Source of the DNA: Candidatus Eremiobacteria bacterium
GTDB taxonomy: Bacteria; Vulcanimicrobiota; Vulcanimicrobiia; Vulcanimicrobiales; Vulcanimicrobiaceae
Reading direction: 5' to 3'
DNA length: 64,000 nt
NCBI GenBank assembly: GCA_963737065.1
Contig: CAVTRC010000001.1
Span: 1,184,001 to 1,248,000, forward strand
Shown: positions 46,786 through 62,900 of the stretch, piece after piece
Layout: the number at the start of each line of letters is the position of its first letter
How positions within the stretch are numbered: position 1 is the stretch's first letter
Notes under the pieces: generated by a model
The model's database searches: none
The model's input: the letters and a program-made list of their open reading frames with translations, nothing else
Told to the model about the DNA's origin: nothing
Position numbers and translations under genes: made by a program

Positions 46786-47603
46786 TCGCGCCGCCGACGC
46801 TTGCAGGTGTTTGGTCAGCGACCGTTACGCCGGTCGATGCGTCGTTCGAACCCGATGCGGCGCGTGCCGCGGCCTTTTATCAAGAACTGCTCGCCAACGG
46901 CATCGACGGGCTGAACGTTCTCGGAACCAACGGCGAAGCGATGTCGCTCAGCACGCGTCAGCGCATCGCATTCATGCGTGGAATCGTTGAGGCCGGGATT
47001 CCGAAACCCCAAACGATGTTCGGCACGGGCGCCTGCGCGCTCGATGATGCGGTGGAACTCAATCGCGCCGCGGCGGACCTCGGAGTAGCAGCCGCGCTGA
47101 TTATTCCGCCGTTCTACTATCGCGACACGAGCAACGACGGTATCGTGCGCTTCTTCGACGCACTCTTCACGCGCGCGAGCCCGCCGCCGGTTCTCCTGTA
47201 TAATTTCCCGCGCATGAGCGGTATCACGTTCACCGCGTCGCTCGTCGACCGCTTGTTGAATGAATTCCCGGGCAAGATCGTCGGCATGAAGGACAGCTCG
47301 AACGACGCGACGTTACAGCGTGAGCTACTGCTGCGCCATCCCGAATTGCGCGTATTCACCGGTTCGGAAGAGACGCTTGCCGACGTGTTGAGCTTCGGCG
47401 GCGCGGGTTGCATTTCGGGAAGCGTTGCACTATGGCCGCGCCTCGCCGGCGATTTCTACCGCACGCGCGATGCGAAATTCGGCAAAGAGCTTGCGGAAGC
47501 ACGCCGCTCCGTCGACGGCGGCTCGTTGATCGCAACGGTGCGCGAACGCATCGCCCGCGCGCGCGCCGACGACAACTGGCGCCGCGCCGTTCCGCCGCTT
47601 TAG
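46782..47603 (+). CDS. Dihydrodipicolinate synthase family lyase
   Basis: LGTNGE, PPFYY, LYNFP and GMKDSS motifs. Confidence 0.9.
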   Translation: MIAPPTLAGVWSATVTPVDASFEPDAARAAAFYQELLANGIDGLNVLGTNGEAMSLSTRQRIAFMRGIVEAGIPKPQTMFGTGACALDDAVELNRAAADLGVAAALIIPPFYYRDTSNDGIVRFFDALFTRASPPPVLLYNFPRMSGITFTASLVDRLLNEFPGKIVGMKDSSNDATLQRELLLRHPELRVFTGSEETLADVLSFGGAGCISGSVALWPRLAGDFYRTRDAKFGKELAEARRSVDGGSLIATVRERIARARADDNWRRAVPPL

Positions 47604-49591
47604 ACCGTGCGCGCTTTCCGCCCGATCCAACGATACAACGCAAACGGGACCAAGACGAATGCGATGACGGCGAGCGGCGTGGCGAGCGCAAAGTTTGCGG
47701 CAAGTAGCGCGAACGGTTGCGACGGATCCGCGACGGAGATCGCACCGCGCTGGGCGGCAACGATGATTCCGGCATAGAGCACGCCCCAGATGCTTTCACC
47801 AACGATCAACCCCGACGCTACGAGCACGCCCAGGCGGCGCGCTGCGTCGGCATTGTTTTTGTTGCGAGTCCAATTGTTGTAGATCGCGCCGAAGAGCGCG
47901 CCGACGACAACGGGCGCCGTCGCCTGCGGCGGAAGATAAATGCCCAAGCCCACGGCGAGCGGCGGAAAGCGAAAGCGTCCCGACATGCGGCCGAGCTCAT
48001 CGATCACGATGACGGCGATGCCGATCAACACACCGATGCCGATGAGGTTCCACGGGGTCGTCGCGCCGATCACGCCTTTCGCGAGCGTCGAAATGAGCAC
48101 CGCTTGCGGCGCGGCCAATCCGTTTCCACCGAATCCGTATGCCTTGTTCAAGACGTCGAGTATGGGCGGGATAATGATCGCACCGAACAACACGCCGACG
48201 ATCAACGCGACTTGTTGCCGCCACGGCGTCGCACCGACCAGCTGACCCGTCTTCAGATCCTGAAGATTGTCATTTGAGATCGTGGCGACGTTGATCAAAA
48301 TCGTCGTGATGAACAACGCGTACGCTACCAACGCGGGGGTCGTGACGGGGTCGGCTTTTGCGACGAGCAGCAGCAAGAGCGCCGCACCGATGACCGAGAG
48401 AATCGCCATGCCGGAAACGGGCGAGTTCGACGATCCGATCAGTCCGGCCATATACCCCGTCGCCGCCGCGACGAACAATCCGACGATTACGACGTAGACC
48501 ATGCCGACGACGATCAGCGGCACAGCCATCGATTGCAACGGTGTGCCCGAGAGAAACACGTACAACAGGATCCCGAGCGGAACAAAGCACGCGAGCGCGA
48601 TCAAAAGAACGACGTTGAAGGGAAGATCGTGCTCGGTGATGTCGAGCGTCGCGCCCGCCTTGCGTGCTCGCGATGCGGCGACCGAGGACATAACGCCTTT
48701 CCACACCGGCGCCGCCAACCGCAGCAACGTCCAAATGCCGGCAATGCCGATCGTGCCGGCGCCGATAAAACGCACGTCGTGCGCGCGGATCGCATTTGCG
48801 ATATCGGCGATCGCGCCCGCCTGCGGATGCAACGCCGAAAACAGTGGAATCAAAATACCCCACGCGATAAAGAGGCCGCCAAAGATCGCGCTACCGACGC
48901 TCAGCCCGATGAGGTGACCGACCCCCACGAGCGCGAGCGAGGTCGAAAATCCCAAACCGGTAATCGATGGACCGACCTTCGCGAAGCCGTCGAACTCGCT
49001 CGCAAAGAGTCGAATCGCCGTACCGACCTGCACTGCGGCTGACGCGATCGAACTCACGATGAGCGCGATCAGCCCCAAGCGATTCTCGGCTGCGGCTTCG
49101 TCCTTTTGTTTACCGGCGCCGACGTGTAAAACTTCCGCCGCAGCGACCCCTTCCGGATACGGAAGATCCGAACCGGTCACGAGCGCGCGGCGCAACGGCA
49201 CGCTGTACATCACGCCGAGAATTCCGCCGAACGCACAGACCGCGAAAGACTGCCAGAACGGAAAGTGCGTCCACCAACTCACCATGACGAGTCCGGGCAA
49301 GACGAAGATGACCGAGGACAGCGTGCCCGCGGCCGAAGCAACGGTCTGCACGATGTTGTTCTCCCAGATCGTCGCGCTGCGGAATCCGCGTAAGACCGCC
49401 ATAGAAATCACCGCCGCCGGAATCGACGACGCGAACGTCAACCCGACCTTGAGGCCGAGATAAACGTTAGCAGCGGTAAAGACGAGCGTAATCAGGCCAC
49501 CGAGAAGCAGCCCGCGAATCGTTAACTCGAGTGCGCCCGCGGGACGGGAAACCGGCTCGATGACACCAGCCGGGCTTTCCGGTTGTGTGAG
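47600..49591 (-). CDS. OPT family oligopeptide transporter
   Basis: NVYLGLKVGLTFASSIPAAV, YPEGVAAA, SNSPVSG and QDLKTGQLVGATP motifs. Start approximate. Confidence 0.93.
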   Translation of the reverse strand, partial: LTQPESPAGVIEPVSRPAGALELTIRGLLLGGLITLVFTAANVYLGLKVGLTFASSIPAAVISMAVLRGFRSATIWENNIVQTVASAAGTLSSVIFVLPGLVMVSWWTHFPFWQSFAVCAFGGILGVMYSVPLRRALVTGSDLPYPEGVAAAEVLHVGAGKQKDEAAAENRLGLIALIVSSIASAAVQVGTAIRLFASEFDGFAKVGPSITGLGFSTSLALVGVGHLIGLSVGSAIFGGLFIAWGILIPLFSALHPQAGAIADIANAIRAHDVRFIGAGTIGIAGIWTLLRLAAPVWKGVMSSVAASRARKAGATLDITEHDLPFNVVLLIALACFVPLGILLYVFLSGTPLQSMAVPLIVVGMVYVVIVGLFVAAATGYMAGLIGSSNSPVSGMAILSVIGAALLLLLVAKADPVTTPALVAYALFITTILINVATISNDNLQDLKTGQLVGATPWRQQVALIVGVLFGAIIIPPILDVLNKAYGFGGNGLAAPQAVLISTLAKGVIGATTPWNLIGIGVLIGIAVIVIDELGRMSGRFRFPPLAVGLGIYLPPQATAPVVVGALFGAIYNNWTRNKNNADAARRLGVLVASGLIVGESIWGVLYAGIIVAAQRGAISVADPSQPFALLAANFALATPLAVIAFVLVPFALYRWIGRKARTV

Positions 49592-49639
49592 TTGCACCCG
49601 CCTTCGATTGTCGGCGCTGCGCAAGGACCCTTTCGTCGA

Positions 49640-49996
49640 TCAGGCAGCGCGTTGGACGAAGACGGCGATCCGGCGTCCGTCGTGCCCGTGCAGGGGCGCG
49701 ACGGTGACGTGAAGATCGCTCACTGCGGCAGCAGCGGGACTTGCGGTCCGGGGGTTACGCCACGCCGCAGTGAGAGCGCGCACGACGCGATCGATCGCTC
49801 CAGGCAGCGCGTCCACGCCGGAGCTCGCGTCGTACAACGATGCTAAGGGTTCTTCAGCGCTGGAGGGCCCGGCCATGACGACCCGATACGCCTCGTCGAG
49901 AATGAAGCAGTAGGGAATGGCGCCGGTAAAGCGCGGACGATTCGGGATTGCATCGTAGGTTGCTTGGGTGATTGCGACCACGGACGAGTCCTCCAT
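49640..49996 (-). CDS. Hypothetical protein divergent from the LuxR regulator
   Basis: 118-aa ORF with typical codon usage and a PAS-like alternating pattern (weak). Confidence 0.6.
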   Translation of the reverse strand: MEDSSVVAITQATYDAIPNRPRFTGAIPYCFILDEAYRVVMAGPSSAEEPLASLYDASSGVDALPGAIDRVVRALTAAWRNPRTASPAAAAVSDLHVTVAPLHGHDGRRIAVFVQRAA

Positions 49997-50070: not shown

Positions 50071-52635
50071 ATGTCCGCCCTGATCGGCCGCGAACGGGAA
50101 ATTGCGACCGCTCTTGGCGCGCTCAAGATCGCCCAATCGACGCCGGTGGCGCGCTGCATCGCCATCGAAGGGCCGCCCGGAATTGGAAAGACCGCGCTGT
50201 TGACCACGATCCGCGAGCAATCGGGCTCGTGGCTTCAATTCGGCACGTCAGCGCATCGGATCCAGCAGACGCTGGCCTTCGGAGTCGTTCGGCGGCTCCT
50301 CGCGGCGCTGTCGGAAGCGCTCGGAGATGAATCCGCCCGCTATACGACCGGACTTGGTGAACTTGACGGCAGTGCAACCGATGGCGGCACGACGCTTTTA
50401 CGTCTGCTCGAGGGCGTAACACTAGATCACCCGGTGCTCATCGCCTTAGATGACGCGCAATGGATCGACGAAGAAAGTGCGACCGCGCTCAACGCGATTT
50501 TGCTCAGTCTCGCTGATCGTCCGCTCGCGCTCCTGACGACCGAACGGATCGATCCGTCGGAACCGCTTTCGCTGCTTGACGCAGCAGTACGCATCAGCCT
50601 CGGTCCCCTCGATCGTCGCGCGGCTATGGGTGCTGCGCGCGCTGAATTTCCGGAGGCACCCGTAGACGTCATCGATGCAATCGTGGCGCACTCCGGCGGA
50701 CATCCGATAGATCTCGTCACCCTCGCTCAATCGGCGCGCGATCGCGCAGCCCGCACTGGGAGTGACGTTGCCGAAAGTTTGAGATCGGTCACGGTTCGCA
50801 ACATCCAATCGCTTCCGGCGCAGCTGCGGGAATTTCTTCAAATCATGTCGCTGCTGAACGAGCCGATCGACTATAACTTGTTGCGCCGAATCTGGCTCGA
50901 CGAAAACCATCTCGTCAATCTCATCACCGCGAGTTCAGAACGCTTTTTAGTACAGGAAAGCACGCACTTGCGGTTCGCACATACCATGCTCGCCGATGCC
51001 GTACTCGAGACGATTCCTGTTACCATTCCAATGCGCCGGCGCATCATCGCTGCACTGCGGAGCGTCTCGAATCCCACGCTGGAAGACCGCTTGCAGATAG
51101 CGGAGCAAGCGCAAGCGTGCGGCGATCGCGACCTTGCGATTACGACCTTAGCCGCGCTTGCGAGCGAAGCGATCGAACGTGGGCAGGTGCGCTTGACGAT
51201 CAGCGTCTCCGAGCAGATGCTGAAAATCGGTGAGCCGCCTGACGACCGGTTCGTACCGTTCTATTCCGGCTACGGCCGCGCGCTACAGTTCATCGATCGC
51301 CTCGATCGCGCGAACGAAGTATTTCAACACGCGTTAGATGAAGCGACGCGGCGGAAATTGCCCGGCGTCGCTGCGCTTGCGGCGCAACTTGTCCTCGCGC
51401 AATGGTTCAACGACGAAAACGAGCGCGCCGTAAAGAACTACGAACGATTTTCAAACCAATTCACCGCGCCGTTCGATCGCGCTGCGCTTCACGCGGCGGG
51501 AATGTGGTTCGCGGCCTGCGACGCCGATATCGCGCGCTTCGAGAAAATCGACGCGGAGTTGACAGCCCTCGACGTTCCACTTCCGCCTGAACTAGCGTTG
51601 CGCCGTCACATCGTTCGCGCGTACATGATGATGCGCGCGGGCAATTTCGTCGAGTCGCGCGCCGCTATATCGCGCGTGGAAGACACCGCGTCGAGCGTTC
51701 CGGACGCGTTGCGGAACTTGGGGCAATTTGCGCGCACGTTCGTCGAACTCTGCTTGCTCGGCGTGCACGAGGCGAATGTCGGCGCGCTGCGAACGCGGCT
51801 GCGCGACGATGAAAACGGTTCGTGGCTCGACTACCTCTATGCGTGGACCGAATTGTTCGCGGGCCGGTATCACGATGCACTGGTCGTCGTCGAAAACGCT
51901 TTACAGCGCTATAGCGATCCCATTCACCGGCGCCGGATGCTGACTCTCGCTGCTGCGCTGAGCGTCATGCAAGACGAACCGAGTTCGTTTTTGTCCTCGA
52001 TCGAGAGCGACGTATCGCGCTTACTCACAGGTGAGCGCGGTGTGTGGTTCATGCCGCTCGCATCGTGGGCGTCACTCCTGCCGCGGACGTCCGAATCGCG
52101 CGCTCGGGTGCTCTCACGGATCGTTCTCACACATCTCTCGAAGCCCAGCGATCCACTCGTTATTACGCTCGCGACGCCAATTGCACTTAGCGCGCGTAAA
52201 CGCGGCGACACGGAGCTGCTCGAAGCACTCGCTCAACCCGAAGGGCTGTGGGATGATAAACGACCGCTCATCGCCGCCGAACTCGCGCTCGCGCGTGCGC
52301 TCGCGCGCGAGGGACTGGGGCGCGCTCCCGCACGCGATGTGGACGACGCATGCGACGAGTGCCGCAATCTTGGGCTGTCGGCAATCGTCGAGCTCGTTTC
52401 GCGCTCGGCGCAAAAGACAAGCGCGCTGAAAGCGGAGGCGAAATCTCCGCTTACGGCTCGCGAACGGCAGATCGCAAGGCTCGTTGCGCAAGGTATGTCG
52501 AACCGCGAGATCGCCGAGCAGCTTGTGTTGAGCGAACGCACCGTTGAAGGCCACATCGCCAACATTTTCAGCAAACTCAACCTCTCGTCGCGCACCCAAA
52601 TTGCGGCTTGGGTGTTGCGCGCTACGACTGCATAG
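50071..52635 (+). CDS. Large ATP-binding LuxR-family (LAL/MalT-like) regulator
   Basis: LIGRERE, Walker A GPPGIGKT, Walker B LDDAQWID and a C-terminal LTARERQIARLVAQGMSNREIA HTH. Confidence 0.93.
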   Translation: MSALIGREREIATALGALKIAQSTPVARCIAIEGPPGIGKTALLTTIREQSGSWLQFGTSAHRIQQTLAFGVVRRLLAALSEALGDESARYTTGLGELDGSATDGGTTLLRLLEGVTLDHPVLIALDDAQWIDEESATALNAILLSLADRPLALLTTERIDPSEPLSLLDAAVRISLGPLDRRAAMGAARAEFPEAPVDVIDAIVAHSGGHPIDLVTLAQSARDRAARTGSDVAESLRSVTVRNIQSLPAQLREFLQIMSLLNEPIDYNLLRRIWLDENHLVNLITASSERFLVQESTHLRFAHTMLADAVLETIPVTIPMRRRIIAALRSVSNPTLEDRLQIAEQAQACGDRDLAITTLAALASEAIERGQVRLTISVSEQMLKIGEPPDDRFVPFYSGYGRALQFIDRLDRANEVFQHALDEATRRKLPGVAALAAQLVLAQWFNDENERAVKNYERFSNQFTAPFDRAALHAAGMWFAACDADIARFEKIDAELTALDVPLPPELALRRHIVRAYMMMRAGNFVESRAAISRVEDTASSVPDALRNLGQFARTFVELCLLGVHEANVGALRTRLRDDENGSWLDYLYAWTELFAGRYHDALVVVENALQRYSDPIHRRRMLTLAAALSVMQDEPSSFLSSIESDVSRLLTGERGVWFMPLASWASLLPRTSESRARVLSRIVLTHLSKPSDPLVITLATPIALSARKRGDTELLEALAQPEGLWDDKRPLIAAELALARALAREGLGRAPARDVDDACDECRNLGLSAIVELVSRSAQKTSALKAEAKSPLTARERQIARLVAQGMSNREIAEQLVLSERTVEGHIANIFSKLNLSSRTQIAAWVLRATTA

Positions 52636-52900
52636 TGTATGCGAACCCGACGGCGCGCGGCGCGTTCGCCTGTTCGCCAGTCAGTTTCGCATGCTCGTCC
52701 TGCAGATTCTCTTCCGCGTATTGACGCATCTGTTCCATGTCGGCGTCGCTCGGCGGCTGCGAGAGGCCAAGCGTTGTTTGAATCAATTCTTTGAGTGCAG
52801 CAGAATCGTTTTGTGCGGCTTGCCACTTCGCGAATGTACCGGGATCGCGGAGTGCGTGCATAAATCCGGCCGCGATTGCGGCGTGTTGGACCGTGGCCAT
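52622..52900 (-). CDS. Candidate RiPP precursor or substrate peptide (92 aa)
   Basis: GAGGA SD 4 nt before the ATG. Helical acidic leader with an ALRDPxxF motif and C-terminal PRAVGFAYTMQS. Last gene of the ycaO-methyltransferase string. Confidence 0.65.
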   Translation of the reverse strand: MATVQHAAIAAGFMHALRDPGTFAKWQAAQNDSAALKELIQTTLGLSQPPSDADMEQMRQYAEENLQDEHAKLTGEQANAPRAVGFAYTMQS

Positions 52901-52964
52901 AGTGTCCTCATAAGTGAAGGGGTGTTCGGGTCTCTGACACCTATCGGGGAATCGGTTCGGCGAG

Positions 52965-53819
52965 TTAGCGCGCTACGATGATTCGCATCGATTCGCGATA
53001 GAGAATCGTGCGGTCACCGGCCCACTCCGTGAGCCGTTCATATACGCGCATGCGCGCATCCTCTGGCAACGTACCAACGTAGTACAAAAGACCCATGCGG
53101 CGCCGGAGAATGTCGATTCCGACAGCACGTTGGACCGTAAAATCATCGATCCGAACGTCGGAGAAGCCGCAGTCATGGAGCATGCTTTCCAACGTTTGCG
53201 TGGCGAAGATACGCGGGTCGCCCGGGTTGACCGGCGCGTAATCCGGATAGATTTCACGCACCCACCCGCGTATGGACTGCAACAACTGCATTGTGATTTC
53301 CGATGGGAGAGGCGGACGCGGGACGACGAAAGCAAAAACTCCCCGTTGTCGCAACACGCGGCGCACTTGCTGCAACGCCGCGTTTACATCACGGATCAGC
53401 ATCACGACGAGATGAGACGCCACTGCATCGAACGCATCGTTCGTGAAAGGCATTGACTCGGCCGCAGCAACAACGAGATCGTCAACGTTCGCAGCTGGAA
53501 GTCGCCGCTGCGCGCGCGCGATCTCTCCCGGCGAAAGATCGATACCGCTCACGCGAATCGCCCGATGCCGCGCGATCAGTTGCTCGAGCAGTACGCCATC
53601 GCCGCAACCGATATCCAACACGCGACCCCGGGAGACATCCACGGCGTCGACGAGGCGACCGTAGCTCGTCCGTCCGCGTTCGTCAACGAAACCTTCGAGG
53701 ACGCGCTCAGTGACGGACCGGCGCTCATCGTGAAACGCGCGGTGGTACTCGTCGAAATACTCAGGACGCGGAGCTTTGCCGGAAAGCACCGCCCGCATAA
53801 CGTCGCTCTCGTTGCTCAT
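52965..53819 (-). CDS. Class I SAM-dependent methyltransferase
   Basis: VLDIGCGDG, GIDLS, MPFTNDAFDAV and RRVLRQRG motifs. Start uncertain (53819 or 53849). Confidence 0.9.
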   Translation of the reverse strand: MSNESDVMRAVLSGKAPRPEYFDEYHRAFHDERRSVTERVLEGFVDERGRTSYGRLVDAVDVSRGRVLDIGCGDGVLLEQLIARHRAIRVSGIDLSPGEIARAQRRLPAANVDDLVVAAAESMPFTNDAFDAVASHLVVMLIRDVNAALQQVRRVLRQRGVFAFVVPRPPLPSEITMQLLQSIRGWVREIYPDYAPVNPGDPRIFATQTLESMLHDCGFSDVRIDDFTVQRAVGIDILRRRMGLLYYVGTLPEDARMRVYERLTEWAGDRTILYRESMRIIVAR

Positions 53820-53934
53820 AGAAACGCAAACGGAAGATGCCTCATGCATCTCCCATTCACTGTTCGCGGGATATAGCCTTAGCGCGCGGCCGTCAAACGC
53901 GGGTGACACGGATACGGGTAAGGACGTTGCTGCT

Positions 53935-55887
53935 TTAGCGCAGCGCGAACGGATTAAGGAGCGCACGTGCGCGCGGTCCCAAGTGCCCCGTGAAGATCAC
54001 GTGTTCTAGGCGCGGAACGATCGTTCGCACAACGCTGATCGGCACGTCGGGTGGCGCCAGGTCCACCGCGACCGCGCTCGTGATGCCGTATTGTGAAAGC
54101 GACCGTAACGTCGCGCGAAGATCGTCCGCAAGATCGTCCGTCGTGCGGTCGGGGATCTGATCGAGCGCTTTGCGCGGCGTCGGCATGTCGAAGTACCAGG
54201 CGTCCCTCGGCAACGACTCGAGTCTTCGCGCATGCGAACCCGAGATTCCCGCGTCTTCGCCAACCCGCAAAATATCTTCCCGTGCAGCCTGAATGTCGAC
54301 GACACGGCTTTGCACGCACTCCGTAAGCGCGCGCGTGAGCGCATGTGCCGGCGATAGCGCGCAACCTAACCCGATATGCGCCATCGGCGGCGTCACGCCC
54401 GGCTCGCTTACGGTTGCAAGCACGGTCAAAGGCAATGGCCCTTCTTCAAGGGCGAGCGCGCGGACCGTCAGGCCGGCGTCATGAATATTTTGAACGAGTC
54501 CGTCGATCGAGGCAATGCCGGTGGGAAACGTGATCTCCGGTGCCAACGGCAAATCCTTCGCCGCCTCGCCCAAGAAGAAACGCGGCACAATCGAACATTT
54601 GACGTGGAACATGCACCAGATGTGGCGTTCGATCAGCTCGCACAGCGCGTGATAGATCGCTTCGGTTAGGTTATTCCCTGAAGCCAGTCCGTTGGTTGAC
54701 GTGATATCGAAAAGACGGTCGCCGAACCATGGACACTGCACCATCGCAACCGGGACGGGAATCGCGTCGCCCGAGATCAGTTCGGTTCCGAGCACGCAAT
54801 CGACGACGAGCTCGCGGGCATCCGAGCGTAAACCGGTCGCTTCGAGATCCATACGCTCGCCGACGATCCGCAAGGACTCGCGAAAGACCGGAAGGCGCAC
54901 GACCGATCCGATTTGACGTTCCGTCGCTTCCATCACCGCACTGGCAATGGCGGCATCAGAGGTCACGCCCTTACCGTTGTAGACGCCGAGTAAATCGACG
55001 GAATGCGGCACGAGCGCTGAGTACGTGGGAATGCCGGTCCGATCCAGATACGTGGTGTCGGCGACGCGCGTAATTCCATAACATTCGCGCAAGCGTGGCA
55101 ATACCGCGAGCGTCGCTTCAAACGGTACGGCGCGATCGTACGTGCCCGGCGCTTTGGGAACCGATTGCGGGAGCACGATCGGCGAGGTATCGATGGAGTC
55201 ATGCTGTGCGATGGCGCGCACCGTTGGTGACGCGGCGTGCGATCGCGGCGCGGCGGCGGTGCGCTCGATAAAGCGCAACACTGTGCGCATCGCAAAACGC
55301 GCATCCCAACGCTTGAGATCGCCATGCGCCCGCGCGATGGAGATGAACGCTTCCCGTGCATGCAGCGGGACGCATTCATAAACGTCCTCCCACGTACGGT
55401 CCATATAGAAGATTCGTCGCGCCCGGTCAATGAGTACATCGTGTTCCGCCCGCGTCATCGCAGCGCAGCGATATAACAAACGCGCGACATGCCGGACATT
55501 GACCATCGGGACGGTAAGCGACTCAAATGTTTCGGGATGCGTGAGCAGCGCCACTTCATCGTCGCCGTCGATCTTCTCAGCAACGTACCAGTTCGCGATC
55601 GCACCAAGCGGCGTGAAGCCGTACGGCGCGCACTCGGCCGCACGCAATGCACCCATGCTCGACGCACCAAACATTCGCGCGTGAAGCGTCGCTGCGTAGC
55701 ATTCCTTGGGCGAAGGCGCAAGATCGTGATGAAAGACGCCGTCGATCAGAAGAACCGCGTCGTATTCTTTTGCGGCCGCAAAGACATCGTTGCGCGACGC
55801 GGGCGGCAGATAGACTAATTCGTCGCGTCCGATTCGATCGCACGGCGGTAACGATGGGCCGCAAAAAACCGCGACGCGTTTCTCCAC
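53935..55887 (-). CDS. TfuA-YcaO fusion protein (putative peptide backbone thioamidation enzyme)
   Basis: N-terminal TfuA: VFCGPSL, LPPASRND, LIDGVF, PKE, GASSMGALRAAEC, DDEVAL, VPMVNVR. C-terminal YcaO: GITRVADTTYLDRTGIP, GKG, SAVMEATER, STNGLASGN, ELIERH, RALTECVQSR, VVRTIVPRLE. One uninterrupted frame. Confidence 0.93.
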   Translation of the reverse strand: MEKRVAVFCGPSLPPCDRIGRDELVYLPPASRNDVFAAAKEYDAVLLIDGVFHHDLAPSPKECYAATLHARMFGASSMGALRAAECAPYGFTPLGAIANWYVAEKIDGDDEVALLTHPETFESLTVPMVNVRHVARLLYRCAAMTRAEHDVLIDRARRIFYMDRTWEDVYECVPLHAREAFISIARAHGDLKRWDARFAMRTVLRFIERTAAAPRSHAASPTVRAIAQHDSIDTSPIVLPQSVPKAPGTYDRAVPFEATLAVLPRLRECYGITRVADTTYLDRTGIPTYSALVPHSVDLLGVYNGKGVTSDAAIASAVMEATERQIGSVVRLPVFRESLRIVGERMDLEATGLRSDARELVVDCVLGTELISGDAIPVPVAMVQCPWFGDRLFDITSTNGLASGNNLTEAIYHALCELIERHIWCMFHVKCSIVPRFFLGEAAKDLPLAPEITFPTGIASIDGLVQNIHDAGLTVRALALEEGPLPLTVLATVSEPGVTPPMAHIGLGCALSPAHALTRALTECVQSRVVDIQAAREDILRVGEDAGISGSHARRLESLPRDAWYFDMPTPRKALDQIPDRTTDDLADDLRATLRSLSQYGITSAVAVDLAPPDVPISVVRTIVPRLEHVIFTGHLGPRARALLNPFALR

Positions 55888-55890
55888 TAT

Positions 55891-55929
55891 AAAAAGACCC
55901 CCACCGATGTCATCTACACCGGCGGAGGT
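55891..55929 (-). terminator. Intrinsic terminator after the 55960..56253 gene
   Basis: Minus strand ACCTCCGCCGGTGT-agatg-ACATCGGTGGGGGT followed by CTTTTT. Confidence 0.75.
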
Positions 55930-55959: not shown

Positions 55960-56253
55960 TTACGGTCGGGTTGTCGACATCGGTGACGGGGTTTTCATCG
56001 ACCCCGAACTCGTGCCGGTGCTCGGACTCGCCATCGCTCCGGGCGTCGCTTTGGGATTGGGCGAACCGCAGTTGCCGTTCGGAGTCATCGTGCCCGGCAT
56101 TTCGGAAGTGCTGCTGGTTTGAGCGCCCGAACTCGGGGAGGGACATGGAGAAGCCGTAGATCCTGAGGTCGTTTGAGCATTTGCCGTTACGCCGAGTGCG
56201 CCCGCAAGAACGAACGCGCCGGCGATAGCGGCGCTTCTAAGCCAATTCTTCAT
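55960..56253 (-). CDS. Small secreted Ser/Pro/Thr-rich protein
   Basis: Signal peptide MKNWLRSAAIAGAFVLAGALGVTANA followed by a low-complexity SPSP tail. Confidence 0.7.
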   Translation of the reverse strand: MKNWLRSAAIAGAFVLAGALGVTANAQTTSGSTASPCPSPSSGAQTSSTSEMPGTMTPNGNCGSPNPKATPGAMASPSTGTSSGSMKTPSPMSTTRP

Positions 56254-57483: not shown

Positions 57484-57507
57484 TAATGTCGCACGTTATC
57501 GACATAA
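57484..57507. other. Palindromic recombinase-type site TAATGTCGC-N7-CGACATAA (copy 1)
   Basis: An inverted second copy is at 58139-58162. Confidence 0.55.
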
Positions 57508-57561
57508 CGTAGTACGCCTCAATGCCATACACTGAGCATGGGGGCGGTTTATTCTTAGGGC

Positions 57562-57954
57562 ATGGAACCGCCAAAAACTCTCCTCGAAGCTGTTCGCATG
57601 TTCTCCGATCCGAACGAAGCGCATCGGTACTTCGCCTCAATCCGCTGGGCTCACGCCGTGGCCTGCCCCCGGATCGGGTACGGATCAGCCGATGTTCGGG
57701 AGATTCGCGGAAGGCGGCCTCGATGGTTCTGCCGCGACTGTAAGCGGCAGCTCACAGCCAAGGTCGGCACGATTTTTCAGGATAGCTCCATCGGCTTCGA
57801 TAAGTGGCTCCGGGCCGTATGGCTCCTTACCGCCTGCCGCAACGGCGTGTCGTCCTATGAAGTCCACCGTGATCTTGGTGTGACCCAGAAGACAGCTGGT
57901 TTATGCTTCACCGTATCCGTCACGCGCTTAGTAGTAAGACGTTCGAAAAGCTAA
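57562..57954 (+). pseudogene. IS1595-family transposase, N-terminal remnant
   Basis: Zn ribbon RW...CP...CRDCKRQ, GTIFQDS and GVSSYEVHRDLGVTQKTA, then a frameshift. No DDE domain. Confidence 0.85.
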
Positions 57955-58138
57955 ACCGACTGTAGACACTCGCGGATGGAGGCCGGTTGATACACCGCCC
58001 GCTGGCATCGTCCCATCCTGGGACCTTCCGCCGCCCAGCGCGACACCGTGAACGAACGCGGTTCGCGCGACTCTACGATCAGCCTACCGCTCCCATTTCC
58101 GGCTTTCTAAGGTCGAGCGGCGCGAGGCGTCTAGTATA

Positions 58139-58162
58139 TTATGTCGCGTACTGGCGACATTA
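58139..58162. other. Palindromic recombinase-type site (copy 2, inverted)
   Basis: TTATGTCG-cgtactg-GCGACATTA. Confidence 0.55.
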
Positions 58163-58238
58163 CTGATTTGACGCAAACGGGGCGACCAGACCTTAAGCTA
58201 GCTCACGGTTGCTGTTTCGTGGTATTGCTCCTTTGATC

Positions 58239-58267
58239 TTGACCATAGCTTGGTACCATGGTACCAT
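58239..58267 (+). promoter_or_regulatory. Sigma70-type promoter with an overlapping palindromic operator for the TA pair
   Basis: TTGACC (58239-44), 17-bp spacer, TACCAT (58262-67). Perfect 16-bp palindrome TGGTACCATGGTACCA at 58251-58266. Confidence 0.7.
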
Positions 58268-58324
58268 ATCAGCATGGGCGACCGGGGGGTCACCTATCCT
58301 CAGTCCTCTAAACGGGAGACAACC

Positions 58325-58543
58325 ATGGCACTGAAACAGATCAATATTCGAGTCGATGAGGAAACGGCGGAGCAACTCAAGCTTCGCGCCACCATTGAAA
58401 AGCGGTCCGTCAACGAGATCGTTGGGGAATCTCTGCGCGAATATTCGAAGCGCCACCCCGTTTCGCGCAAAGACATGCTCGCTATGGTGCGGGCCATTGC
58501 GCGTGAGGATGAATCGTTATTGGAAGAGTTGAGAAAAGGCTAG
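58325..58543 (+). CDS. Ribbon-helix-helix (Arc-like) antitoxin
   Basis: KQINIRVDEE...LKLRA..EKRSVNEIV motif, GGGAGA SD, directly upstream of the Doc-like gene. Confidence 0.8.
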   Translation: MALKQINIRVDEETAEQLKLRATIEKRSVNEIVGESLREYSKRHPVSRKDMLAMVRAIAREDESLLEELRKG

Positions 58544-58544
58544 A

Positions 58545-58943
58545 TTGCAATATCTCACTGAAGACGACGTTCTTGCGATTTACAGAGAGGTCATCGGAGA
58601 ACCCGCATTGCGGTATCCCAGTGGCCTTTCTTCTGCAGTAGGACGCCCGCAGCAGTCGGCATTTGGTGAAGACGCATATCCGACGATTCAGCTAAAGGCT
58701 GCAGCCCTTATGCAGTCGCTTGCCGAGAATCAACCTTTCGTTGACGGCAATAAGCGCATTGCATGGATTTGCGGAAAGCTATTCTTGCAGATTCACGGAT
58801 ACACGATGCATGCGACGGATAAGGAGGGAGCAGAACTCTTTTTAGAACGCATCGCAAATGGCATGACAATTGAGGACTTGTCGGAGTGGATTAGTCGCCA
58901 TATTTCCGTGCTTATTACAGACGAAAACGCAGGACTGACTTAA
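58545..58943 (+). CDS. Doc/Fic family toxin with a variant active-site motif
   Basis: LSSAVGRPQQSAFGEDAYP..KAAAL and NQPFVDGNKR motifs. Confidence 0.88.
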   Translation: MQYLTEDDVLAIYREVIGEPALRYPSGLSSAVGRPQQSAFGEDAYPTIQLKAAALMQSLAENQPFVDGNKRIAWICGKLFLQIHGYTMHATDKEGAELFLERIANGMTIEDLSEWISRHISVLITDENAGLT

Positions 58944-59800
58944 AGTCTTTTTTTGTGCCATCCAGTGGTCATATCCGTTCGCTACAATTGAACCATGAAC
59001 GAGCCGACCACCCTCCTCGAAGCCGTTCGCATCTTTGCAGACCCGCAAGTCGCTCATGACTACTTCCTCGGCCTCCGCTTTCCAAACGGTATCGCCTGCC
59101 CTCGGCACGGATGCGGTTCGGCGGACGTAGCAAAGATTTCAAACCGTAACGCGTGGCGCTGCCGCGACTGCAATCGCCAATTTATGGCCAAAGTCGGCAC
59201 GATCTTTGAGGACTTTGAGGACAGTCCTATCGGCTTCGACAAGTGGCCCGCGGCTATGTGGATGTTGTCCTCATGCCGTAACGGTGTATCATCCTGCCAT
59301 CGCCCGGGCGATCGGCGTCTGTCAGAAGACGGCGTGGTTCATGCTGCACCGCTTGCGTCACGCTATGAAAACCAAGACCTTCGAGCGTCTTTCGGGCGAG
59401 ATTGAAGTAGACGAGACGTTCATCGGCCCGCGTGGTCGCTCGATGACTCGTCGCCATGTTCTCCCGCCATCGAAGAAAGGCGGACGCGGTCCGACGTTCG
59501 GAAAGACGACCGTCATGGGATTCCGCGAACGCGGCGGAGATGTTCGCGCGTTTGTCGTTAAAGACAATCGCCGGAACACGCTGCTTCCGAAAGTTTTCGA
59601 GAACGTAATGCCCGGCGCGACCGTCTACACCGATGTGCTCGGCTCTTATCACGGCCTACGCGAAGCGTTCGTTCACCAAGTCATCAATCATGCCGAGTCC
59701 TATGTTGACGGTCGCATTCATACGAACAGCATTGAAAACTTCTGGAGCGTGCTGTTGACGCCGGCTGAAAATTGACCCACTTTGCTATGGGATCGCCGGT

Positions 59801-61616
<1,816 letters not shown>

Positions 61617-61666
61617 CGCGAACTTACGTTCGCGTCAGATCAGGCGGAACGGCTTAGTCAACTCTG

Positions 61667-62740
61667 TTAGGCGGCGACTTCAATACTATTCTGACTATTG
61701 CGCGCAAGTCGGTCTTGCATCGGTTGCAACCGATAAAACACAACCGTTGCCAGCTGCCGTTTGTGAGAACGCATCGCAGCTCGATGCGTCTTGCCCTCAG
61801 CTCGCTTACGCGCATAATAGAGTTGGCCCGGATGATTGCGCGTGCGGTTTTGGACCAACGCAATAACATGGAGTAATCGATTGAGCTGACGATCACCACC
61901 GGTGTTGACACGGACGCTCGCGTTGCGACCGCTCGAACACGGAACGGGCGCCGCCCCGGCGCGCATCGCGAAGCTCGCGGCATTGCGATACATGCAAAGA
62001 TTGCCGGCATGTCCAATGATCCCGGCAGCAACGACAATGGAAACGCCTCGAAGCTCCAGCAATTCGGGCGCAAGGCGCTTAACGAAAGGGCGCAGTTGGC
62101 GTTCCAGCTGATTCACTGCAGCATTGAGCCGGCGGATTTCCGAGATCGCCTCGTCGACCTCATCAGCAAGCGCATCACCGGTATAGCTCTTACCGCGATG
62201 ACCCGTTAGAAGATCTGCTGCATTCTGCAATGCAATTTCGGTGGTCATGTTCGAGGGCAGCGGTCCAATCGCCAGCCGCAATGCGGCATCCCGCAGCCGA
62301 TTTACAGCCTCCGTCCGCTGTCGCACAAGTCGATCGCGGCGATCATAACGTAACCGGACTGCTTCCTGTTCATCCAGACGTTCGCAACGCCGCAAGCGAT
62401 CGGATTCGCGCAGAACTGCTTCGGCAATCGCTCGAGCGTCGAGTGGATCGGATTTTCCTCTTCGGCTTGCGTGTTTGCGGTGACGTTTAGTGAACGAACC
62501 TGGAACCTCGTATACGACGGCGTTGCTTTTCAGCAGAGCATCGGCGAAGCCACGTCCGAACGAACCACTTCCCTCAAGACCCCATTCAACGGTGCCAAAC
62601 GACCGTGCTCTTTCGATCGCAGTCGCATACCCTGCGGCGTTCGTTGCAATGGTGATCTCCGAGAGCGCTTTCCCAACTCCATCAACGAATACGATGGTGT
62701 GAGAATCCTTGTGACAATCGACGCCCGCAACGACGCGCAT
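61667..62740 (-). CDS. IS110 family transposase/recombinase (DEDD)
   Basis: GVDCHK, LEGSG, KSDPLDA, APVPCSSG and GDRQLNRLLH motifs, with an AAGGAG SD. Confidence 0.95.
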   Translation of the reverse strand: MRVVAGVDCHKDSHTIVFVDGVGKALSEITIATNAAGYATAIERARSFGTVEWGLEGSGSFGRGFADALLKSNAVVYEVPGSFTKRHRKHASRRGKSDPLDARAIAEAVLRESDRLRRCERLDEQEAVRLRYDRRDRLVRQRTEAVNRLRDAALRLAIGPLPSNMTTEIALQNAADLLTGHRGKSYTGDALADEVDEAISEIRRLNAAVNQLERQLRPFVKRLAPELLELRGVSIVVAAGIIGHAGNLCMYRNAASFAMRAGAAPVPCSSGRNASVRVNTGGDRQLNRLLHVIALVQNRTRNHPGQLYYARKRAEGKTHRAAMRSHKRQLATVVFYRLQPMQDRLARNSQNSIEVAA

Positions 62741-62759
62741 GCGTTCTCCTTTTATGCGA

Positions 62760-62900
62760 GGTTACCGCAGACGTCGGCGATCCCTTATTGAGCATTTGCA
62801 CTCGGCTTACCAGCCAAAACGCGCTGCGGAAAAGACGCGCCTGCCGGCCATTCCACCCCAAGCCAATCCGACTGTCAATTTTGGAGCCAGAGCAGACGCA
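62760..62900 (-). ncRNA. Candidate IS110 bridge RNA
   Basis: Two stem/internal-loop/hairpin modules whose loops match the target flank and the element ends. TATGAT -10 at 62911-62906. Confidence 0.7.

Follow-up and report, generated by a model that had tools for sequence, protein, structure and literature searches.

Thioamitides of the thioviridamide type are encoded with dehydration and decarboxylase genes, and their core peptide ends in Cys. In archaea, a YcaO-TfuA pair (models TIGR03266/NF033432; structures 6PE3 and 6XP8) is associated with McrA thioglycine. The accessible part of PMC13063428 gives ThiS-type carriers as the usual sulfur route with TfuA, and the available sections on thiovarsolin of Streptomyces varsoviensis (PMC6511847) describe a minimal set of precursor, YcaO and TfuA (VarA/VarY/VarT) with repeated cores and no dedicated protease. 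The RefSeq-only survey of TfuA-related biosynthetic gene clusters by Malit 2021 (PMC8120280) contains, in its accessible parts, fused tfuA-ycaO genes, Nif11-like precursors and signalling neighbours that are listed and not interpreted as receptors; names beginning with Eremiobact- or Vulcanimicrob- do not occur in the supplement text available. Here we describe a cassette from a 64,000-nucleotide stretch of DNA (the window) of a Candidatus Eremiobacteria bacterium (GCA_963737065.1, contig CAVTRC010000001.1, 1,184,001-1,248,000, forward strand), in which a tfuA-ycaO fusion, a methyltransferase gene and a 92-aa gene meet a gene coding for a signal transduction ATPase with numerous domains (STAND) that bears tetratricopeptide repeat (TPR)-like helices. 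The cassette represents a new family of probable thioamide RiPPs (peptides that are made by the ribosome and then modified post-translationally) with a conserved receptor-like partner, for which a signalling role is plausible.

The enzyme and its probable precursor family

Analysis of the open reading frames (ORFs) and Pfam domains of the window revealed that all four cassette genes are real and intact. The features of the locus are the following.

53935-55887, minus strand: tfuA-ycaO fusion, 650 aa (TfuA at about 4-209, YcaO at about 250-640), predicted backbone thioamide-forming enzyme
52965-53849, minus strand: class I S-adenosylmethionine-dependent methyltransferase, 294 aa (Methyltransf_11), accessory and exchanged between loci
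52622-52900, minus strand: 92-aa precursor gene, whose product has a leader of four helices (residues 3-76) followed by a disordered tail
52625-52666, minus strand: predicted core, residues 79-92 (P-x-x-V-G-hydrophobic), its limits deduced from the unit that relatives repeat in tandem
52905-52910, minus strand: Shine-Dalgarno-like site of the precursor gene, GAGG at 52909-52906, read from the sequence
50071-52635, plus strand: STAND protein of the large ATP-binding LuxR (LAL) type, 854 aa (NTPase at about 1-315, TPR-like region at about 319-779, LuxR helix-turn-helix (HTH) at 793-847), proposed sensor
49640-49996, minus strand: PAS-like protein, 118 aa, head-to-head with the STAND gene, accessory in LuxR-type clusters
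55897-55929, minus strand: terminator-like hairpin, a consensus match only, marking the upstream boundary

The coordinates agree with the initial annotation, which had placed three co-oriented minus-strand genes tail-to-tail with a plus-strand regulator: the precursor and STAND genes converge, and their stop ends share 14 nt (52622-52635). The ORF of the methyltransferase spans 52965-53966, the ATG at 53849 (294 aa) being the preferred start in agreement with relatives. TfuA, YcaO and the 92-aa peptide are each encoded once in the genome. No dehydratase, decarboxylase, ThiS/ThiF, protease or exporter gene adjoins the cluster, as judged from ORFs, Pfam and clustering of neighbours, which is what the initial annotation had reported; ThiS (two copies) and ThiF (one copy) are encoded elsewhere in the genome. 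The hairpin lies just upstream of the tfuA-ycaO start, a GTG without Shine-Dalgarno sequence, and terminator-like sites are not enriched in the window (4 compared to a mean of 7.6 in shuffled sequences). In many genomes, long hairpins bury or precede the GTG or ATG start of tfuA (L042-L082, 60 nt upstream, folded singly); their MAFFT alignment yielded no consensus structure.

The TfuA (residues 49-165, E 1e-27) and YcaO (residues 304-628, E 3e-50) domains both scored above the Pfam cut-off within one 650-aa ORF, thereby confirming that the gene is a fusion. Its presumed novelty was dropped, as fused tfuA-ycaO genes had already been reported by Malit 2021 and occur in 31/71 of the loci described below. 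The closest solved structures are the archaeal YcaO 6PE3 (E 3.6e-27) and TfuA 6XP8 (E 1.6e-24), with the azoline formers TruD (E 1e-7) and LynD (E 4e-6) far behind as structural relatives. The Glu/Arg motif residues of YcaO, which we take to bind ATP, align with those of 6PE3 and are 97-100% conserved in 49 relatives, and the TfuA motif residues are conserved to the same extent in 44 relatives. None of the 45 YcaO C-terminal ends inspected is Pro-rich, and neither a dehydrogenase nor a RiPP recognition element (RRE) partner is conserved among the commonest neighbour clusters scanned. Most named records of close relatives of the enzyme bear the label Vulcanimicrobiota, Ca. Eremiobacteraeota or Vulcanimicrobiaceae, and a few bear others. 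Judging from the chemistry of the enzyme family, the product of the cassette is likely to be a thioamide.

The 92-aa protein matched no Pfam or NCBIfam family, and the ESM Atlas gave no usable match for family members P0001 or P0017. It has 11 other close homologues in a family of 143 distinct sequences in all. Ratios of dN/dS between 0.06 and 0.23, in leader and tail alike in three groups, indicate purifying selection, and a Shine-Dalgarno-like motif precedes 69/77 family genes. The homologues, the purifying selection and the GAGG site support the 92-aa ORF as a real gene, as had been proposed, and by its sequence relationships it appears to found an unannotated precursor family. The AlphaFold2 (AF2) model (mean predicted local distance difference test (pLDDT) 71) has four helices at residues 3-76 and a tail at 79-92 with values under 50; Foldseek found no match to it at E<=0.001. 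A likeness of the modelled fold to known structures was rejected, the best Z of VIA (5.8) being within the range of common helical arrangements, as was a search of PDB sequences with the broad peptide profile, whose best hit (E 0.017) was among designed or unrelated proteins only. The Nif11-type structure 9ZN4 ranked 15th (Z 4.1, rmsd 3.7, 59 residues aligned), and the Nif11 Pfam model scored 13-14 bits against a cut-off of 23.8 (E 0.07-0.1) in 2 of 30 sequences and matched none in 53.

In at least 9 of the 143 sequences, counted by eye (P0014, P0016, P0020, P0036, P0046, P0050, P0053, P0060 and one from G145), a single leader is followed by 2-6 copies of the tail unit P-x-x-V-G-hydrophobic, which is the layout of a RiPP precursor. 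We counted 125 core-like units in 91/143 sequences, with P in 68% and V in 91%, the G being fixed by the search pattern; the short hydrophobic tails of more distant subfamilies are of other kinds. The genomes G002, G024, G153 and G375 each encode two or three precursors. Ser, Thr or Cys occurs in 116/136 tails and is absent from 20/136, and the window precursor has no Cys. The window peptide also lacks a Gly-Gly motif, and a loose GG/GA/AG/SG pattern was seen in 38/136. Given the tandem repeats and its linkage to the enzymes, the 92-aa protein is very probably the substrate of YcaO-TfuA.

The peptide profile matched 56/401 genomes of the phylum and TfuA 77/401; all 56 fall within these 77, and a comparison of the lists by hand left the peptide in 0/324 genomes without a TfuA match. 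Eighty-two loci were mapped, 71 with the peptide and 11 without a peptide match. TfuA or YcaO lies within 7 kb of the peptide in 69/71 loci, both misses being contigs of 3-5 kb, and in 55 of the 57 loci that were chosen by the peptide alone. Co-occurrence of the peptide with tfuA and ycaO, which the initial annotation had set as its test, was thus found, and multi-core relatives are known. Peptide calls are weak at L090, L094 and L096 (E 6e-3 to 1e-2) and at L092 (E 4e-5), the peptides linked to BTAD or XRE proteins (see below) are tied to the family only via the g20 group (HHalign 95-97%; 3-24% directly), and a doubtful second match (L083:3872-4288) was left out before counting. L093:3417-3911, between ycaO and a gene for a cyclase-type STAND, may code for a very divergent precursor, with no profile match. 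No protease, exporter or sulfur carrier was conserved among the commonest neighbour clusters scanned. A minimal thioamide RiPP pathway unlike that of thioviridamide is, on sequence, the best reading of this core.

Six loci from other lineages of the phylum (L101-L106) code for a longer, different TfuA (open frames of 420-590 aa) with YcaO, some near a radical-SAM gene, and have neither the precursor family nor a STAND gene. Five viral YcaO loci likewise lack both; distant YcaO-TfuA pairs are found on the viral contigs L236, L237, L239 and L240. Of 80 metagenome loci selected only for their YcaO, 38 fall within the clade of the window enzyme; 27 of these have the peptide, 24 of the 27 with a STAND gene.

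The STAND-TPR partner and its allelic divergence

The regulator matched the Pfam domains AAA_16 at residues 4-153 and GerE at residues 793-847, and its Walker A (G34/G37/G39/K40) and Walker B (D127/D128) residues are invariant in 50 orthologues. About 460 residues of TPR-like helices separate the NTPase from the LuxR HTH (AF2 pLDDT 90), and the best Foldseek matches include the STAND-TPR protein PH0952 (6MFV), Avs3 (8DGC), Apaf-1 and a maltose-system complex (8BOB). An N-terminal P-loop NTPase, a helical-repeat middle and a C-terminal LuxR HTH together identify it as a LAL-type STAND protein.

A STAND NTPase-TPR gene directly adjoins the precursor gene in 69/71 loci. The partner is a LuxR-type LAL gene lying tail-to-tail with the precursor in 56/71 loci and adjoining it otherwise in 2 more, and rearrangement of tfuA and ycaO, by splitting, inversion or a move to opposite sides, leaves the pairing intact. 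In 11 of the 13 loci that lack LAL, a different STAND-TPR gene, of NB-ARC type (NB), lies within 414 bp of the precursor: six code for proteins with an AfsR-like BTAD domain, three with an XRE HTH and two with a nucleotide cyclase. The two loci with neither stop at contig edges. At L096, the ORF beside the precursor codes for the TPR part, and that of the NTPase lies 3.8 kb away. Cyclase-type STANDs occupy the same slot in G100 and G167, and also in G278 and G327, where the peptide was undetected. Since each of 17 genomes contains just 3-12 matches to the replacement family, adjacency by chance is expected at under about 1% per gene, a figure that treats kin as independent, which they are not. 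The cyclase and XRE types fall within one NB clade (support 99), implying that outputs were swapped. As a control, none of 40 other STAND loci had the peptide, a weak comparison made on 4.5-kb stretches with a single-copy peptide. The LAL regulator proposed initially is thus present with the expected domains, and the initial remark that such regulators often control biosynthetic clusters understates it: a conserved STAND-TPR protein of any of four output types beside the precursor suggests a sensor more strongly than a usual cluster activator.

Divergence of alleles was compared across 50 LAL loci whose N-terminus is complete; thinning of g42 and g38 left 25 of them for the trees. In six genomes of the window's genus (g1), the cassette sits in one shared slot whose flanks are 73-97% identical (AhpC 92-97%). 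The YcaO proteins of these genomes are 66-86% identical, the peptides either 75-79% or 36-54%, and the TPR regions either 57-76% or 23-43%. In the peptide and TPR trees, G186 groups with G000/G002/G005 (98/99 and 97/92), genus g43 is joined by G379 (99/99 and 90/77), and the tree of flanking genes differs in both cases. Identity of the core follows that of the TPR region, with partial r values of 0.23 (p 0.019, n 16) and 0.28 (p 0.001, n 28), and is untied to the NTPase or YcaO in partial tests, and identity of the leader follows both the NTPase (partial r 0.32-0.43) and the TPR region (0.15-0.35). This co-divergence is consistent with matched alleles, without being proof of them.

The methyltransferase (Methyltransf_11, E 6.5e-21) is less constant. 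It was found within 2.5 kb of the precursor in 47/71 loci, with 22-71% identity across loci and 22-49% to the window copy, and is by these comparisons an accessory gene, non-orthologous across loci. Accordingly, of the pathway to a thioamidated and methylated peptide that had been proposed, the thioamide RiPP core stands, and the methyltransferase, present in the window, is no fixed member of it. The PAS-like gene, whose PAS_4 match is merely E 0.027, is present in 41/71 loci and travels with LuxR-type clusters; among 41 relatives it was matched in 8 genomes only, every one of which has the cassette. In genus g42 (L042:3608-4936 and others), the PAS-like gene is followed by a second AAA_16 gene, whose shorter product lacks an HTH. 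A gene for an OPT oligopeptide transporter (window 47600-49624) flanks 27/71 loci, and one for a family-5 peptide-binding protein lies near 11 others (e.g. L041:3629-5194); these neighbours could be a route of re-import or mere synteny. Peroxiredoxin and thioredoxin-like genes also flank many loci and look like host synteny. Upstream of tfuA, the window codes for a genus-conserved 97-aa Ser/Thr/Pro-rich protein with a signal-like N-terminus and no family (55960-56253). Farther on, at 57500-62800, GC content is lower and transposase-like ORFs were labelled by eye as two short IS1595-like remnants, an IS21-like pair and an IS110-like gene; a small Doc/Fic-like toxin-antitoxin pair (58250-58943) was also labelled by eye.

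A comparable pairing was seen outside the clade. The other 42/80 metagenome loci, with YcaO mostly 32-42% identical, have neither the peptide nor a STAND gene, and in 28 of these 42 sister-clade loci a kinase-TPR gene occurs together with one for an unrelated small helical protein, usually immediately upstream of ycaO. The operon (L198:3656-8906 and 27 more within L193-L235) codes for an extracytoplasmic function (ECF) sigma factor, a Ser/Thr kinase-TPR protein, the small protein(s), YcaO and TfuA, the ECF sigma gene being present in 10 loci. The small proteins, one or two per operon and about 85-105 aa long, have variable tails and no Pfam or NCBIfam family, and their homology to the precursor is undetectable (HHalign 0.4-3.5%). 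The supplementary maps of Malit 2021 that were available (Figs S1, S3, S4, S5; PMC8120280) also place, in the vicinity of tfuA/ycaO, a TPR protein, a Streptomyces antibiotic regulatory protein (SARP), an AAA ATPase or a Ser/Thr kinase, and Haft 2010, in its accessible part, places a large Ser/Thr kinase beside NHLP-Burk precursors (PMC2887384). The pairing of a RiPP with a TPR transducer is therefore recurrent. Within a limited coverage of the literature, we found no interpretation of it for thioamides, and within a coverage that mostly excludes subscription journals, no description of this cassette.

Possible roles of the pairing

On gene context, we tentatively propose that the adjacent STAND-TPR protein has the thioamidated tail peptide as its ligand. 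For substrate, modification, cleavage, binding and output, we infer the following scheme. The 92-aa gene would be translated from its strong Shine-Dalgarno site; YcaO would bind the folded helical leader and, with ATP, O-phosphorylate a backbone carbonyl in the C-terminal P-x-x-V-G-hydrophobic unit, where V-G as the modified site is a guess. Sulfide delivered via TfuA, probably from a ThiS-type carrier encoded elsewhere, would replace the oxygen, and the methyltransferase, where present, might add an allele-specific methyl group. The tail, either cut free by housekeeping peptidases or still attached to its leader, would bind the TPR region of the STAND protein and trip its nucleotide switch. 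Output would be set by the fused domain, a LuxR HTH here and an AfsR-type BTAD, an XRE HTH or a nucleotide cyclase in relatives, and precursor, sensor and methyltransferase would be exchanged as matched alleles in the manner of pherotypes. Still more cautiously, the cassette may exemplify a class of bacterial signals in which a thioamidated peptide has a cognate receptor that resembles NOD-like receptors (NLRs), with pherotype swaps, outputs from transcription to cyclic nucleotides and a parallel origin in the kinase-TPR pairs, a class that may explain the TPR proteins at other RiPP clusters.

Several points weigh against the ligand-receptor proposal. Every argument for sensing comes from genomes. 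The NB-type partners form four groups in the tree and may be monophyletic (p-AU, approximately unbiased test, 0.69), such that independent recruitments of a partner may be just two, LAL and NB. Over 36 loci, the correlation of the whole peptide with the TPR region, controlled for NTPase and HTH, is -0.05, and the whole peptide is tied most to YcaO (partial 0.77); the partial tests are uncorrected and were run on kin and about 14 alignment columns. Linkage can give the same co-divergence because neighbouring genes recombine as a unit, and the core lies closer along the DNA to the TPR region than to the NTPase. Release and export of the peptide lack an explanation without a conserved protease or exporter, and no obvious signal sequence was seen by eye in the precursor, whose N-terminus is modelled as a helical bundle. 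The V-G (V/C-G) motif is absent from 52/143 family sequences, and several metagenome loci duplicate peptides or organisms already among the genomes. Finally, the window enzymes score under the NCBIfam thioamidation cut-offs of TIGR03266/NF033432 (174 compared to 365 bits and 130 compared to 235 bits), which places them outside the McrA-thioamidation family.

LAL and AfsR-type proteins are classic pathway regulators, and the STAND protein could be one of them, answering another cue without binding the peptide, with an antibiotic, a chelator or a similar compound as the product. DNA-binding domains on all LALs and on 9/11 replacement STANDs agree with such a role, and linkage would account for the co-divergence. 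We nevertheless consider it rather unlikely: the cyclase-type STANDs in the same slot cannot bind DNA, the sister clade has a kinase-TPR protein instead, no operator is shared upstream of the precursor genes (the best 6- and 7-mers being at the level of shuffled sequences), and no exporter, resistance gene or consistent tailoring was seen among the commonest neighbour clusters. The partner might also be the target of an intracellular modification switch, in which an uncleaved small protein reports the status of sulfide or of the sulfur carrier through its thioamidated tail and activates or inhibits the STAND protein. The lack of a conserved protease and exporter, a leader that folds in the model and is under strong purifying selection, its identity following both NTPase and TPR region, and the peroxiredoxin or thioredoxin-like genes beside many loci fit this idea, and YcaO enzymes can modify folded proteins such as uL16, as stated in the accessible part of PMC13063428. 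It is improbable, as loci with tandem cores or several precursor genes are characteristic of RiPP precursors that undergo processing, thiovarsolin manages without a dedicated protease in the account available (PMC6511847), and the redox neighbours resemble host synteny.

The enzyme might instead form something other than a thioamide (amidine or azoline), or its substrate might be another protein, for example the STAND protein itself. The scores under the curated thioamidation cut-offs, the absence of local ThiS/ThiF genes and the Ser, Thr or Cys in 116/136 tails could be read in this way, but TfuA is retained with intact motifs and fused in 31/71 loci, the whole peptide co-diverges with YcaO, and dehydrogenase and RRE partners are not conserved, making this alternative very improbable. 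An NLR/amyloid pair of the Bell-BASS type, with the helical domain as effector and a beta-prone tail as an amyloid motif templated by the STAND protein, would recall the Bell/NLR pairs described in the accessible part of 10.1101/2020.01.06.895854 in that the gene of a helical protein of about 100 aa, whose short tail is repeated in some cases, overlaps one for a STAND-TPR protein. A shared motif was sought and rejected: 50 LAL pairs scored like shuffles (LAL-tail mean 16.5 compared to 14.7 for shuffled sequences, with a 95th percentile of 21). Moreover, LAL begins directly with the NTPase, no Bell-type Pfam match was found, and tfuA and ycaO would be left without explanation, so that this reading has next to no probability.

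Relation to described systems

To our knowledge, hardly any LAL- or AfsR-type STAND regulator has a known ligand, and most thioamide peptides have no known biological role. The cassette supplies gene-encoded candidate ligand-receptor pairs in matched allelic series, and expression of three genes in E. coli makes both questions testable. It also adds a compact enzyme predicted to form thioamides, whose tolerant substrate is multi-core by nature, and a specialised pathway that is widespread (56/401 sampled genomes) in a mostly uncultured soil phylum.

A TfuA encoded with a YcaO of intact motifs, beside a co-located precursor with leader and core, places the cassette among TfuA-associated YcaO clusters. 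It falls outside the thioviridamide architecture, as had been proposed, since dehydration and decarboxylase genes are absent beside the window cluster and among the conserved neighbours scanned, and the precursor has no Cys. The McrA-thioglycine system provides the nearest structures, the best NCBIfam models and the same motif residues; here the scores are below both cut-offs, the host is bacterial and a dedicated small-protein gene lies beside the enzymes. Thiovarsolin shares the minimal gene set, whereas the cassette has a folded leader of about 76 aa, a hydrophobic V-G core that is usually single, TfuA and YcaO that are often fused and a STAND-TPR gene as the most constant neighbour. The long Nif11/NHLP leaders (9ZN4) also have a four-helix N-terminal bundle and a disordered C-terminus in the part of 10.64898/2026.10.04.756588 available; the structural and Pfam match of our precursor to them is weak, and it has no conserved Gly-Gly site.

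On the side of the partner, the FxSxx-COOH TPR protein (NF040586), HaaT (NF041717), the TOMM kinase/cyclase (TIGR03903) and the peptide-modification cyclase (TIGR04510) all combine a RiPP locus with a large NTPase-, kinase- or cyclase-TPR protein. These systems use radical-SAM or azole chemistry. The partners described here match the four models weakly, all far below cut-off, and we found no receptor role for those TPR proteins in the literature searched. An RRNPP receptor is by definition a TPR receptor without an NTPase domain, and agr/com pherotype loci hold hypervariable matched alleles in a fixed chromosomal slot, to which this cassette may be likened. In RRNPP quorum sensing, as presented in the accessible part of PMC10075063, a propeptide gene also lies beside the gene of a TPR-bearing intracellular receptor. 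The partner here is instead a STAND NTPase with swappable outputs, and the cassette differs from both RRNPP and agr/com in its folded leader, its dedicated backbone-modifying enzymes and its want of an evident export route.

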